Shown piece by piece: positions 25,986-61,693 of a stretch of DNA of 64,000 nt. The notes beneath the pieces were generated by a model that did not search any database, was not told the DNA's origin, and saw nothing but the letters and a program-made list of their open reading frames with translations. The number at the start of each line of letters is the position of its first letter. Position 1 is the first letter of the stretch. The translations under genes and the position numbers were made by a program. The DNA comes from Bacteroidales bacterium (lineage in GTDB: Bacteria; Bacteroidota; Bacteroidia; Bacteroidales; JBDKHP01): the NCBI GenBank assembly GCA_965230435.1, contig CBDDLB010000004.1:335292-399291 (forward strand), in the 5' to 3' direction.

Positions 25986-26723
25986 TTACTGATTCAATCT
26001 TTCTGTCTTCTCTTGTACTGTCAATTCACCTACTTTAGTCTTTGGTTCCTTGACCTTTTTAGGCTTTTGGGGGAGTTCTTGCCTAAGTGCATTATTGCCA
26101 GAAAGAGTTTCATAAGCCTGGTTATATGCACCAACATCATTCAGATCCGATTTAATTGTAGTATTTGGCAATAATTTCTTTCCTTTTTCCTCTGTATAAG
26201 GATCCCATTCGCGGACTTCACAAGCAAAATTCGCTCTAGCCTCTTTTATGCTTGGATTTGCATCTACCTCAACCTTATAATATACAGGTTGTCCCTGCCA
26301 TACGAACTTTTTCACAGCATTCTCTACATAACCCAAGTGGTCGCTGTTGGCTGCTTTTGTGATGGGGTATAAATTGTAGTTCATCGCACTTCCACCCAAA
26401 TTATCGTTCCATAAATGTCCCTTAACAAGGCCTCCCCCATTGATTCCCCATCTCTGTCGTATGGCAGTCATCATTTTATCTTGCGATTTGTTAAGGTTCG
26501 CACTTTGTCCCCTAGGAACATCCAATGGATCGATACCTACTTCCATTGTATCTCCAACATTTATTTTTCCAGTTCCAAAATCATAGGTCTGATCAGTGTG
26601 TTTATAGTATTTTGTCTTTCGCTGAAGTGTTTGGTTGGAATCCTTTGAGCTCCGTTTTTCGGTAACACTAGGTAAATCGTTTACAAATTGAAGATTCTTT
26701 TTTTCATCTGCTTTTTCGTACAT
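25986..26723 (-). CDS. Leader-tagged effector with HNH/EndoVII-like (GH...N...E) C-terminal domain
   Basis: The ORF track gives 25986-26831 (GTG start). An internal ATG at 26723 gives MYEKADEKKN..., matching the leader of the other effectors. The C-terminal ...VKGHLWNDNLGGSAMNYNLYPITKAANSDHLGYVENAV... resembles beta-beta-alpha-metal nuclease toxins (unverified). Confidence 0.55.
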   Translation of the reverse strand: MYEKADEKKNLQFVNDLPSVTEKRSSKDSNQTLQRKTKYYKHTDQTYDFGTGKINVGDTMEVGIDPLDVPRGQSANLNKSQDKMMTAIRQRWGINGGGLVKGHLWNDNLGGSAMNYNLYPITKAANSDHLGYVENAVKKFVWQGQPVYYKVEVDANPSIKEARANFACEVREWDPYTEEKGKKLLPNTTIKSDLNDVGAYNQAYETLSGNNALRQELPQKPKKVKEPKTKVGELTVQEKTERLNQ

Positions 26724-27044
26724 AAGTGAATTTGCACCTCCACCTTTTCGGTTATTCTTTTTTATTCTTGGTTCTTTGAACATATCCCGACTCTGTTTTA
26801 AGCACGTAGTGCTATTTATTATGATCAACACTGTTCTATCTTTCCAGCATAATGACAGCCCAAAAGTAAATGAATCGCATAGCGATGTTGTAGAAATTAA
26901 AACTCCATCACTACACGATTCCTTTTGATTTTAAACCATCAGGAGTTATTAATTATTCATTAACCATCTTGTGTTGGATATATGCTAGTTTTTAATCAAT
27001 TCCCGTATTATGTTCAATAATGTAAAGCTGTCGCTTTGAGATAA

Positions 27045-60290: not shown

Positions 60291-60719
60291 TCAATCCTCA
60301 AAAACAAAAATACAATTAGGCATTTTCTTCCTTAATATATTGACCTCACTCTCTTGCATATCTGTTGCTGTCAACACCAAATACTCTAACTGGTTTAACT
60401 CACCAATAGTTTCTGGCAAAGTTTTAACTGGATTTGCATAAAGATATATCCTCCTTAGTTTAGTTAATTTCGAAATTTTGCATGGTATTGTTGTAATAGC
60501 ATTAAAATTAAGAATAAGTACCTCTAATTCTTTTAATTGAAGAATCTTATCTGGAAATCTAACGAGCCTTTGAGAAGTTAGGTTTAAAATTCGAACTTTA
60601 TCGGACTTTTTTACAGCAAGTTCAAGATCTCTATAAACAATGATACTATCTTTTGTTTTTTGAGAAAAGCTATTTATTGACAAAAACAGAAGAAGTATAA
60701 TATAGATTTTCATCATCAT
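60291..60719 (-). CDS. Exported leucine-rich-repeat protein (candidate immunity partner)
   Basis: 142 aa. Signal peptide MMMKIYIILLLFLSINSFSQ. LRRs (LKELEVLILNFNAITTIPCKI, LTKLRRIYLYANPVKTLPETI, LNQLEYLVL). Its ATG overlaps the effector stop (ATGA). Confidence 0.75.
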   Translation of the reverse strand: MMMKIYIILLLFLSINSFSQKTKDSIIVYRDLELAVKKSDKVRILNLTSQRLVRFPDKILQLKELEVLILNFNAITTIPCKISKLTKLRRIYLYANPVKTLPETIGELNQLEYLVLTATDMQESEVNILRKKMPNCIFVFED

Positions 60720-61693
60720 TTGTTTTTTAAATGGTACAATAAAAATTCAGGAGGTGCACTGGAAACCGACTTATTTCTGTAAGTGGAATAAGTATCAGGA
60801 TCTTCCCCCCATTTCTCCATTGAAGATTGATAATTATTCATTGTACCCCTAGAATTAAGTCTTCGTCCAAATGCCATTGGTATTGAATTACTTTTTGAAA
60901 CAATAGGAGAATATCCAGCCTGTGATTGTATGAAGCCAGCAAGCGTTTTTGCTTCAAATTCTGTATTGGTTACAGGTTGTGTTTTTTCTGTACTACGGCC
61001 ATATTTGTGAACATAGTAATCATATTGAGCTGCGTGAATAAACTCTTCCAATAAATGTGTCTGCATTGTTTCAACCCATTCTTCTTTTGAGCTATAGCTC
61101 ATGTCAGCCAAATCGAAATTTATGCCTATTCTTCCTCCACTAGGAAAATCTGATTTAATCAGATCTGGTATGTACTCTCCTGTTTCTTCATCCTCTTCAA
61201 ATACAACCGAATCATATACACCATGAAAATCCCCCCATGCACCCTTATTTATAACAGTGTTGTTAACTGTGTATACAAAGTCTGAACTTTCTAAAATAGA
61301 CATTATTTCTCTGTACGCATTACTCTTCATATTTTTTCCCAAAGCAGCTTTAGTATACTCAATTTCTTTAGATTCCATGTTGTCCCACTTAAGCTTTCTT
61401 TGTATAATTTCACCTTTTCTTATCTGATCATGAGTATTTGCATCAAAGAAAGATGAGTCCTCCTCTGGCTTCCCTCTCAAAGACCAACCAGACACAATCT
61501 CTCCTAAAGCTTTGGGCTTAAGCATAACAGCCCCCTTATCTTCCCCTCCTAAATTCCACCTTCCTTCTCCTTGTAAAATAGGCTTTTGCTCTGAACAAAA
61601 GCCAAGAGTTGATTTCGCACTGCCTCTTTTCTGGGCTGCACCAGCAGCAGCCCTACTTCTATTTTCTTTCGTTTTATCTACCTGTTTATACAT
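60716..61693 (-). CDS. Leader-tagged effector of unknown activity
   Basis: 325 aa starting MYKQVDKTKENRSRAAAGAAQKRGS. It sits between the baseplate and tape-measure genes. The C-terminal domain is not recognised. Confidence 0.65.
   Translation of the reverse strand: MYKQVDKTKENRSRAAAGAAQKRGSAKSTLGFCSEQKPILQGEGRWNLGGEDKGAVMLKPKALGEIVSGWSLRGKPEEDSSFFDANTHDQIRKGEIIQRKLKWDNMESKEIEYTKAALGKNMKSNAYREIMSILESSDFVYTVNNTVINKGAWGDFHGVYDSVVFEEDEETGEYIPDLIKSDFPSGGRIGINFDLADMSYSSKEEWVETMQTHLLEEFIHAAQYDYYVHKYGRSTEKTQPVTNTEFEAKTLAGFIQSQAGYSPIVSKSNSIPMAFGRRLNSRGTMNNYQSSMEKWGEDPDTYSTYRNKSVSSAPPEFLLYHLKNK

Follow-up and report, generated by a model that had tools for sequence, protein, structure and literature searches.

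A putative N-terminal cargo module on toxin-like proteins encoded beside an extracellular contractile injection system of a Bacteroidales bacterium

What could mark a set of mutually unrelated toxin-like proteins as the cargo of one injection machine? This question is raised by a stretch of 64,000 nucleotides from a Bacteroidales bacterium (contig CBDDLB010000004.1, positions 335,292 to 399,291; referred to below as the window), in which genes for an extracellular contractile injection system (eCIS) are accompanied by seven candidate cargo open reading frames (ORFs). Six are named here by the coordinate at which they begin (p61693, p49386, p47531, p43814, p35228 and p31112), the last one is called ORF 7. 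The original prediction, made from the letters of the sequence, had stated that all seven carry a short basic leader, a candidate signal for loading them into the particle. The seven N-termini on which it was based are all encoded at these positions on the minus strand, and translations and hydropathy gave no hydrophobic signal-peptide core, in line with its statement that Sec and lipoprotein starts are lacking. The seven C-terminal parts were confirmed to be unrelated to each other. The eCIS context was also borne out: the window contains CIS_TMP, AAA+ and CIS_spike_tip proteins, a LamG fibre and an Alg12/All3315-like baseplate (Table 1).

We propose, with a probability of about three in four, that the leaders are diverged or shortened copies of a conserved N-terminal cargo module of eCIS that is read by the AAA+ ATPase of the system. 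Membership of the leaders in one family, their anchoring at the N-terminus, their association with eCIS genes and DUF4157, and modular fusions were observed directly. The conserved unit is not the first 20–30 residues previously taken as the common denominator but a bipartite module of about 55 residues. Judged by sequence, the seven ORFs are a heterogeneous set: two are clear members and one is marginal, three form a paralogous group with a short variant, and the last is doubtful. The core idea of a leader that marks cargo independently of DUF4157 fits both the computed data and the published experiments and had to be amended in detail; we regard this interpretation as partly supported; it seems essentially right but was already known in kind.

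Over their first 35 residues the flagged ORFs rank with the most hydrophilic ORFs of the window (mean Kyte-Doolittle values of -1.0 to -2.0), and each leader has an aromatic residue within the first 8 positions and a net positive charge at residues 6–21. The six main ORFs and, if started at 26783, also ORF 7 agree with the descriptors of Danov et al. 2024. Among 354 ATG-initiated candidates that reach 60 aa or more, MY is the beginning of 18, and the five of highest polarity among these 18 are exactly flagged ORFs. We then scored 963 starts of the window with a 25-column hidden Markov model (HMM) that contains no window sequence and was trained on 63 N-termini, taken from non-redundant DUF4157 proteins from other organisms. 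p61693, p35228, p31112, p43814, p47531 and p49386 took ranks 1–4, 6 and 7 (hypergeometric P ~6e-15), with p61693 as the top match at 16.1 bits and p31112 at rank 3. A second HMM, derived from 79 DUF4157-centred genome loci, gave the same ranking picture; the sole starts to intrude were TTG/GTG codons inside the tape measure gene, where it encodes a K/Q/E-rich coiled coil. Against shuffles that keep composition, z reached 7–10 for p61693, 4–6.6 for p35228, 2.8–4.4 for p49386, about 3 for p43814 and 2–3 for p31112; for these five proteins the signal is positional and goes beyond composition. The resemblance claimed for seven ORFs exceeds chance for six; that of ORF 7 is weak and was not significant with any model.

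Three of the six are not independent. p49386, p47531 and p43814, which share the start MYKEKKKQNSRK and are called the MYKEK trio below, are 56–89% identical over 94–156 N-terminal residues (89% over residues 1–156 for p47531 and p49386), and about 80 nt of upstream non-coding DNA are also common to the three genes. They are recent paralogues and are counted as one observation. In p61693, p31112 and p35228 the shared residues are encoded by different codons, hence their similarity has been kept at the protein level. A recent DNA duplication behind all seven leaders was rejected, as it holds for the MYKEK trio only and the others differ at synonymous sites.

Resemblance to the window leaders is also seen at the N-termini of DUF4157 proteins in many phyla, which continue into Phi-x-D-N-R-P followed by x-Q-R-K. 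The consensus of this module is MYAQVEKPKENKSRAVANSV..GFGFVDNRPEAVAQRKLQEMANN, its full form MNTHADKTQENKSQSVANAVSQKQSGGESTFQFVDNRPEAVAQRKLQEMANN. It consists of a hydrophilic, disordered leader anchored at Met1 (aromatic or Asn at position 2, Lys at 7, E/D-N-K-S at 10–13), Phi-x-D-N-R-P at about residues 33–38 and a helix-forming A-Q-R-K-L-Q-E-M-A-N-N segment. An AlphaFold2 model of residues 1–65 of p35228 shows coil at 1–37 (pLDDT 50–56) and a confident helix at 38–63; the module seems to combine a disordered leader with a helix behind it, the disorder evidence coming from a short fragment of one protein. In the 79 genome loci Phi-x-D-N-R-P occurs within the first 120 residues of 55 of 114 DUF4157 ORFs versus 29 of 906 other ORFs; deeper in the proteins we counted 7 occurrences in 272,590 residues.

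A 48-position profile (A3) made from 21 outside N-terminal fragments and three window fragments was run against 1.84 billion representative proteins and returned 1,562 matches with E<=1e-3, 69 of them with E<=1e-10; almost all run from residue 1 to about 51. Two flavors could be distinguished among them, MNTHADKTQENKSQSVANAVSQKQSGGESTFQFVDNRPEAVAQRKLQEMANNSPQ and MYAQVEKPKENKSRAVANSVAQKKSNGKQGFGFVDNRPEAVAQRKLQEMANN, and the window leaders look like diverged copies of the second (compare MYAQVEKSEKKNKSR.. of p31112). In a module-centred metagenome sample, comprising 80 loci fetched with module alignment A5 and 102 module-bearing ORFs, 95 of the 102 copies start at residue 0–4. Conservation at the amino-acid level extends over Bacteroidota, Bacillota, Cyanobacteria, Chloroflexota, Myxococcota and Proteobacteria. 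No Pfam-A or NCBIfam model covers the module, and its core string was in no paper found by literature search; as far as these searches reach, the alignable family that spans phyla and to which the leaders belong appears to be undescribed. An HMM of motif B built from D-N-R segments selected by regular expression proved too rigid, as its one match was an internal copy in p49386 and segments with the variants ENR, DER and ND escaped it; an HMM of the full module took its place.

This 56-column HMM of the N-terminal domain (NTD) was built from 70 non-redundant global representatives, outside sequences only, and scored on the 963 window starts. The clearest match is p35228 (E 3.3e-9), in which HMM positions 1–55 align with residues 1–55 without a gap; this alignment also validates the GTG start, which has an in-frame TAA six codons upstream. 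p61693 matches over residues 1–32 (E 7.5e-9), and its start MYKQVDKTKENRSRAAAGAAQKRGSAKSTLGFCSEQKP is comparable to MYKQIEKSKENKSRTVANSVTQKKSDVKQGLGFVDNRP of the outside protein P0237. The match of p31112 is marginal: 11.3 bits for the domain (E 0.019), or 20 bits (E 3e-5) without composition correction. In p49386 a second, partial NTD copy (motif B, ANFEDNRSEVEKQKKLQQM) was detected past DUF4157 at residues ~142–181 (nt 48844–48963). This internal copy (SGSFSSSTVPKKNDVMQLANFEDNRSEVEKQKKLQQM) has an E of 2e-7 with the NTD HMM and of 4.7e-5 with the motif B HMM, and a few global matches (P0169, P0193, P0247, P0276) also have the module internally, at residues ~170–245. p49386 looks like a leader-DUF4157 unit fused in front of a leaderless motif-B effector, the internal copy being a probable fusion scar.

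The leaders of six ORFs open the longest ORF at their site; for ORF 7 the predicted start was 26723, an internal ATG of the ORF 25986–26831. Read from ATG 26783 (MFKEPRIKKNNRKGGGANSL; leader MFKEPRIKKNNRKGGGANSLMYEKADEKKNLQFVNDLP, nt 26670–26783), A17-N18, F33-V34 and P38 fall into the canonical register. Because of this better fit 26723 was rejected and 26783 is probably the true start. The NTD HMM gave an E of 0.1–0.6, not significant from either ATG, and the shuffle test was not significant either, so that membership of ORF 7 in the family is doubtful.

How does the module relate to DUF4157? Intact copies of the domain (PF13699) are found in the window only in p49386, where our local DUF4157 HMM scores 193 bits, and in p47531. 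p43814 has retained a decayed remnant at residues 37–94 (nt 43533–43706) that aligns with positions 3–60 of the 102 in the local HMM (40 bits, E 1.5e-13) and lacks HExxH. A remnant at residues 71–113 of p35228 (nt 34890–35018) has a deletion of 15 residues and no HExxH; its alignment with DUF4157 by hhalign has a probability of 72% (E 3.4e-5). The statement that the leader also occurs on proteins without DUF4157 thus applies in the strict sense to p61693, p31112 and ORF 7, while p43814 and p35228 keep decayed remnants. Since the leader is kept where DUF4157 has decayed or is absent, the locus itself holds natural examples of leader retention, the remnants of p43814 and p35228 being the evidence for retention upon DUF4157 loss.

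The same was seen elsewhere. Among the top 150 global representatives, 100 are without DUF4157 and 50 have it (75 of 124 without it among those of at least 150 aa), and the 89 complete module ORFs of the metagenome sample divide into 44 with and 45 without the domain, the latter 110–1038 aa long. The 79 genome loci, which were centred on DUF4157, contain 69 module-matching ORFs in 41 loci, 14 of the 69 without DUF4157. Ten leader-bearing ORFs of this kind gave no PF13699 match in a Pfam scan, and these include one GH-E nuclease and, in Algoriphagus sp. PAP.12, one EndoU nuclease. In our proposal DUF4157 would be an optional passenger.

We also determined how often the module is found near eCIS genes. 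Homologues of the AAA+, tape measure or Alg12-like genes of the window lie within 10 kb in 43 of the 79 DUF4157 loci, and 21 of these 43 contain at least one DUF4157-less ORF with leader or motif B. AAA+ homologues adjoin DUF4157 genes in 36 other genomes (350–440 bits; two weaker, ~180–200 bits). In the 79 loci the ORFs bearing the module are located exclusively on the operon strand (69/69), and none of 318 opposite-strand ORFs matches (Fisher 4e-12). In the metagenome sample, eCIS markers were detected in 4 of the 17 module-centred loci of at least 8 kb. ORF calling in the fetched loci was mechanical, and the markers were sought by single-sequence phmmer with window proteins, which makes absence of a marker weak evidence. 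Some module genes are solitary among ordinary chromosomal genes (loci L092, L097, L113/L114 and L141/L143). The module also marks such orphan genes, matching the scattered p35228, p31112 and ORF 7. One metagenome contig (L111, 4921–14246) has a 129-aa Cys-rich ORF (MAKCVCSGAKIKC...) that by eye resembles a PAAR-like/DUF4280 spike, followed by four consecutive genes with module and DUF4157; no AAA+ or tape measure homologue was detected in its 14.7 kb.

That a polar, disordered N-terminal leader and not DUF4157 directs eCIS cargo is an idea already published. In AlgoCIS, the cargo proteins Cgo1 and Cgo2 occupy the lumen of the tube (Xu et al. 2022, PMC8894135). Deletion of the NTD that precedes DUF4157 abolishes their loading, deletion of DUF4157 does not; loading also needs the AAA+ protein Alg15 and its activity as an ATPase, and beta-lactamase and Cre are loaded when fused to NTD-DUF4157 (Ericson et al. 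2026, bioRxiv 10.64898/2026.05.27.728243). The window resembles this system in having a disordered NTD, an optional DUF4157 and a variable C-terminal effector next to an Alg12-like baseplate, a tape measure and an AAA+ protein. It differs in having six or seven candidate cargos, of which several lack DUF4157 or retain no more than a decayed remnant and one is encoded within the structural block. The AlgoCIS authors describe the NTD as system-specific and unconserved between systems, whereas the family reported here is alignable across phyla; other Algoriphagus species (L018, L076) carry the module in the pre-DUF4157 regions of cargo-like proteins.

In Afp, a stretch of 20 residues at the N-terminus of Afp18 (MPYSSESKEKETHSKETERD) is enough for loading (Steiner-Rebrova et al. 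2023, bioRxiv 10.1101/2023.11.13.566157), and N-terminal signal peptides were reported for Pdp1 and Pnf of PVC (Jiang et al. 2022, PMC9054023). Like the window leaders these signals are located at the extreme N-terminus, polar and unstructured, 20–50 residues long and with an aromatic residue near Met1. Both are sufficient to load foreign proteins. The Afp18 and PVC cargos lack DUF4157, and a consensus among them has not emerged; they belong to a gammaproteobacterial, insect-targeting eCIS lineage, and the likeness is one of description. Danov et al. described a physicochemical signal signature, with 5% of DUF4157-less proteins scoring strongly, and proposed a chaperone role of DUF4157 in cis or in trans (PMC11297309). 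The window leaders agree with this signature in the descriptors hydrophilic-35, aromatic-in-8 and positive disordered 6–21. Their score is composition-based, with no conserved sequence detected, whereas the module is position-specific and can be searched with an HMM. A consensus was sought in three papers and either none was found or the NTD was considered system-specific (PMC11297309; bioRxiv 10.1101/2023.11.13.566157; bioRxiv 10.64898/2026.05.27.728243).

By analogy with the AlgoCIS, PVC and Afp experiments, the module would serve in loading and the AAA+ ATPase of the window is its presumed receptor and unfoldase. In the producing cell the ATPase would recognize the N-terminal module, unfold the protein and feed it into the lumen of the tube. 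Any toxin domain fused behind the module could in this way become cargo, and DUF4157 could decay (p43814, p35228) or be absent (p61693, p31112) without loss of the tag. Recognition may involve K7, F33, D35-N36-R37-P38 and Q43-R44-K45, the residues that the module defines.

Several points weigh against this proposal. The evidence for loading comes wholly from relatives, and the link to the tested AlgoCIS NTD runs via L018 and L076, not via the sequences of Cgo1 and Cgo2. The profile behind the global search included three window fragments among its 24 sequences. With the 56-column HMM the MYKEK trio has an E above 1 at its N-terminal leader, and the assignment of the trio and of ORF 7 is based on rank, short-HMM scores, DUF4157 or context. 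In 13 of the 17 long module-centred metagenome loci no eCIS gene is within reach; adjacency to eCIS is not obligatory, which leaves room for doubt that the link to eCIS is exclusive, and the module may have a second function or route.

A different role of the module would be that of a handle for the metallopeptidase-like DUF4157 domain, as a substrate, docking or inhibitory segment acting in cis or in trans, for example through cleavage at x-Q-R-K in maturation or auto-inhibition, and not that of a loading signal. Such a role would agree with the finding that module and DUF4157 occur together much more often than the background (50 of the 150 best global matches, 55 of the 69 genome-locus ORFs), with the position of x-Q-R-K immediately before DUF4157 in the family and before the toxin module in p61693, and with the chaperone proposal of Danov et al. 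We nevertheless consider it unlikely: loading in AlgoCIS survives removal of DUF4157 but not of the NTD, p43814 and p35228 have lost HExxH and keep the leader, and half of the carriers have no DUF4157 in cis, some of them none within 10 kb.

The resemblance could also have no functional meaning, if low-complexity, disordered, Lys/Glu/Ser-rich N-termini and recent duplication of 5' gene ends in a recombining toxin array had produced it. Shuffle controls giving a positional signal, the match of p35228 and p61693 to the outside 56-column model (E ~1e-9) in register from Met1, their differences at synonymous sites, which exclude recent copies, and a family of 1,562 N-terminally anchored clusters all argue against it. 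What fits is that three of the seven are recent paralogues with common upstream DNA, that per-sequence scores of the short HMM are low (5–16 bits), that ORF 7 is not significant and that K/Q/E-rich internal segments of the tape measure score too. The shuffles, the global search and the 56-column HMM have largely refuted this explanation, which we hold to be improbable. Least probable of all is that A-rich codons after the start aid translation initiation in Bacteroidota without Shine-Dalgarno pairing, or that the leader targets a type VI (T6SS-iii) or type IX (T9SS) secretion system. The leaders are indeed encoded by AAA/GAA/AAT-rich DNA and weak T9SS-type Por_Secre_tail matches occur in the window, which, like its nearest DUF4157 relatives, point to Bacteroidota. 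Other window genes do not begin in this way, the module is kept at the amino-acid level across six phyla, and the Sec signal and C-terminal domain required for T9SS are absent from the leader-bearing proteins.

Reading the leaders as copies of an eCIS cargo module has consequences for the identification of cargo. Six, perhaps seven, toxin-like proteins would be assigned to one injection machine, three of them outside the operon proper. Published eCIS loading signals have been treated as free of consensus and predicted from composition; with a position-specific model of the module, genomes could be searched directly for cargo, DUF4157-less and remote cargo included. On balance we are inclined to go further and regard the pre-DUF4157 region as a discrete, alignable cross-phylum family of about 55 residues (Met1 leader, FVDNRP, QRKLQEMANN helix) that defines the cargo of a large eCIS class, is equally frequent with and without DUF4157, labels orphan cargo genes remote from eCIS operons and ends at x-Q-R-K. 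If true, the module HMM would be the first sequence-based genome-wide predictor of eCIS cargo.

The x-Q-R-K motif recurs at the junction of the N-terminal region with DUF4157 or the toxin module. It is found as IIQRK at residues 95–99 of p61693 (61396–61410), at residues 73–76 of p35228 (35001–35012) and as LQRK in ORF 7 when read from 26783. In p61693 homology to a toxin borne by an RHS protein begins directly past IIQRK: residues 100–323 are 43% identical (E 8e-51) to residues 79–296 of P0122 from another organism, the N-terminus of which is the end of an RHS core. x-Q-R-K may be a recombination or processing boundary. P0122 is the only homologue found for p61693, which has no Pfam or NCBIfam match.

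Table 1. Coordinates of the leader-bearing ORFs, the small ORFs following them and the genes of the injection system in the window.
Feature	Position (nt)	Strand	Description
p61693, 325 aa	60716..61693	-	N-terminal module, residues 1-~45 (nt 61559-61693); toxin module 100-323; no DUF4157
142-aa leucine-rich repeat (LRR) protein with signal peptide	60291..60719	-	LRR_8/LRR_4 matches; hydrophobic N-terminus; candidate partner or immunity protein
p49386, 418 aa	48130..49386	-	leader 1-36; intact DUF4157 37-137 (PF13699 E 6e-12); C-terminal domain without family assignment
130-aa lipoprotein-like ORF	47745..48137	-	hydrophobic N-terminus, then Cys; overlaps p49386 end; no Pfam match; candidate immunity protein
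p47531, 506 aa	46011..47531	-	same short leader 1-36; intact DUF4157 37-137 (PF13699 E 1e-12)
100-aa ORF with several transmembrane segments	45705..46007	-	4 nt past p47531; no Pfam match; candidate immunity protein
p43814, 1354 aa	39750..43814	-	short leader; AHH nuclease 1232-1318 (E 2.7e-15); no PF13699 match
Imm11-family immunity protein	39139..39774	-	PF07791 E 1.4e-8; overlaps p43814 end
p35228, 710 aa, GTG start	33096..35228	-	complete NTD 1-55 (nt 35064-35228); SH3_3 and DUF6861 by Pfam
109-aa ORF	32726..33055	-	40 nt past p35228; no Pfam match; candidate immunity protein by position and translation only
p31112, 1355 aa	27045..31112	-	leader MYAQVEKSEKKNKSR + ENRSAMNTQRR, residues 1-33 (nt 31014-31112); no DUF4157
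ORF 7	25986..26831	-	weak ββα-Me nuclease-like C-terminus; Endonuclea_NS_2 E 0.0014, below cut-off
Alg12/All3315-type baseplate, C-terminal LamG	61905..63998	-	PDB 7aeb/9wsz (Alg12) E ~8e-32; 7b5h (All3315) E 1e-39
eCIS tape measure	56301..59978	-	PF19268 CIS_TMP E 3.5e-82
AAA+ ATPase (Alg15/Pvc15/Afp15 class)	54457..55791	-	PF00004 E 3e-31; winged-helix domain
Fibre-like protein with LamG	50510..54223	-	PF13385 E 2.6e-14
eCIS spike tip	49866..50312	-	PF19267 CIS_spike_tip E 5.9e-39

The C-terminal parts of the leader-bearing proteins had been labeled as various toxin domains. Of these labels only the AHH nuclease of p43814 was confirmed, and the weak Endonuclea_NS_2 match supports the HNH-like label of ORF 7. 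Sequence searches of Pfam, NCBIfam and PDB gave no confirmation for a lysozyme-like, JAB-like or PD-(D/E)xK-like domain. The C-terminal domain of p47531 has no family assignment, SLT-like motifs being seen by eye only, and the domain past DUF6861 in p35228 likewise has none. p43814 contains a long linker with a Gly/Ala-rich hydrophobic segment. p31112 has no Pfam match; behind its leader come an S/N-rich linker, Gly-rich xPGI repeats over about 1000 aa and a C-terminal region that is hydrophobic. Gly/Ala-rich, hydrophobic, glycine-zipper-like stretches occur in the DUF6861 region of p35228 (33.9–34.2 kb), in p43814 (40.3–40.5 kb) and at the C-terminus of p31112 (27.2–27.6 kb), upstream of or near the C-terminal domains; in the target cell they may function in membrane insertion or in translocation.

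Polymorphic toxins carry interchangeable C-terminal toxin domains behind N-terminal trafficking domains such as RHS/PAAR or MIX, each with an immunity gene. The window has a comparable arrangement. The AHH nuclease gene followed by Imm11 represents a known toxin family with its immunity gene, and p61693, p49386, p47531 and p35228 are each closely followed by a small ORF, variously with a signal peptide, a lipoprotein-like start or transmembrane segments; the start of the LRR gene overlaps the p61693 stop by 4 nt. The locus can be read as a polymorphic-toxin-style array, in which one putative delivery tag is placed on unrelated toxin domains, each followed by an immunity-like gene. These partners indicate bacterial targets and suggest that at least part of the cargo is antibacterial. 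As in RHS/PAAR and MIX systems, one delivery module is paired with swapped toxins, and the p61693 toxin is found behind an RHS core elsewhere. Unlike in those systems, the proposed tag is a short linear segment read by an ATPase for packing into the lumen and not a folded domain mounted on the spike.

The alignments of the baseplate protein with solved structures begin at chain residue ~283/300, the N-terminal ~280 residues lying beyond the window edge. The closest solved relatives of the AAA+ ATPase are VAT/p97/Cdc48 D2 unfoldases. As a seed for related loci the spike tip gave 3 homologues only, and DUF4157 was used instead. One spike-tip protein, P0124, is 69% identical to that of the window; the source genome probably has a second eCIS. 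The gene for p61693 is located within the structural block, between the baseplate and tape measure genes, and those for p49386, p47531 and p43814 come after the spike tip gene. For these four the predicted position inside or directly downstream of the block is correct; it is not for p35228, p31112 and ORF 7, which lie 8–18 kb past the block, with a truncated Tox-PL-2 fragment, the gene of an IS1 transposase and, on the plus strand, a DUF4197 gene in between.

The Tox-PL-2 (papain-fold toxin) fragment is a leaderless 96-aa ORF (38327–38617, minus strand) that matches only the C-terminal half of the profile (positions 50–102 of 103) and adjoins the IS1-family transposase gene at 37119–38090; it is probably a displaced or truncated toxin module. 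A promoter and terminator scan of the window gave promoter-like counts no higher than in shuffled sequence. Further along the minus strand, two 108-aa secreted proteins (23307–23633 and 24795–25121) are about 90% identical and about 1.2 kb apart, a local duplication, and both show weak similarity to the T9SS C-terminal sorting domain/DUF3244. At 8506–9716 the minus strand encodes an IS3-like transposase as a pair of ORFs, and a run of about ten plus-strand ORFs without obvious function and of low GC content (31–36%) extends over 11870–21563; together they may represent another mobile or defence island.

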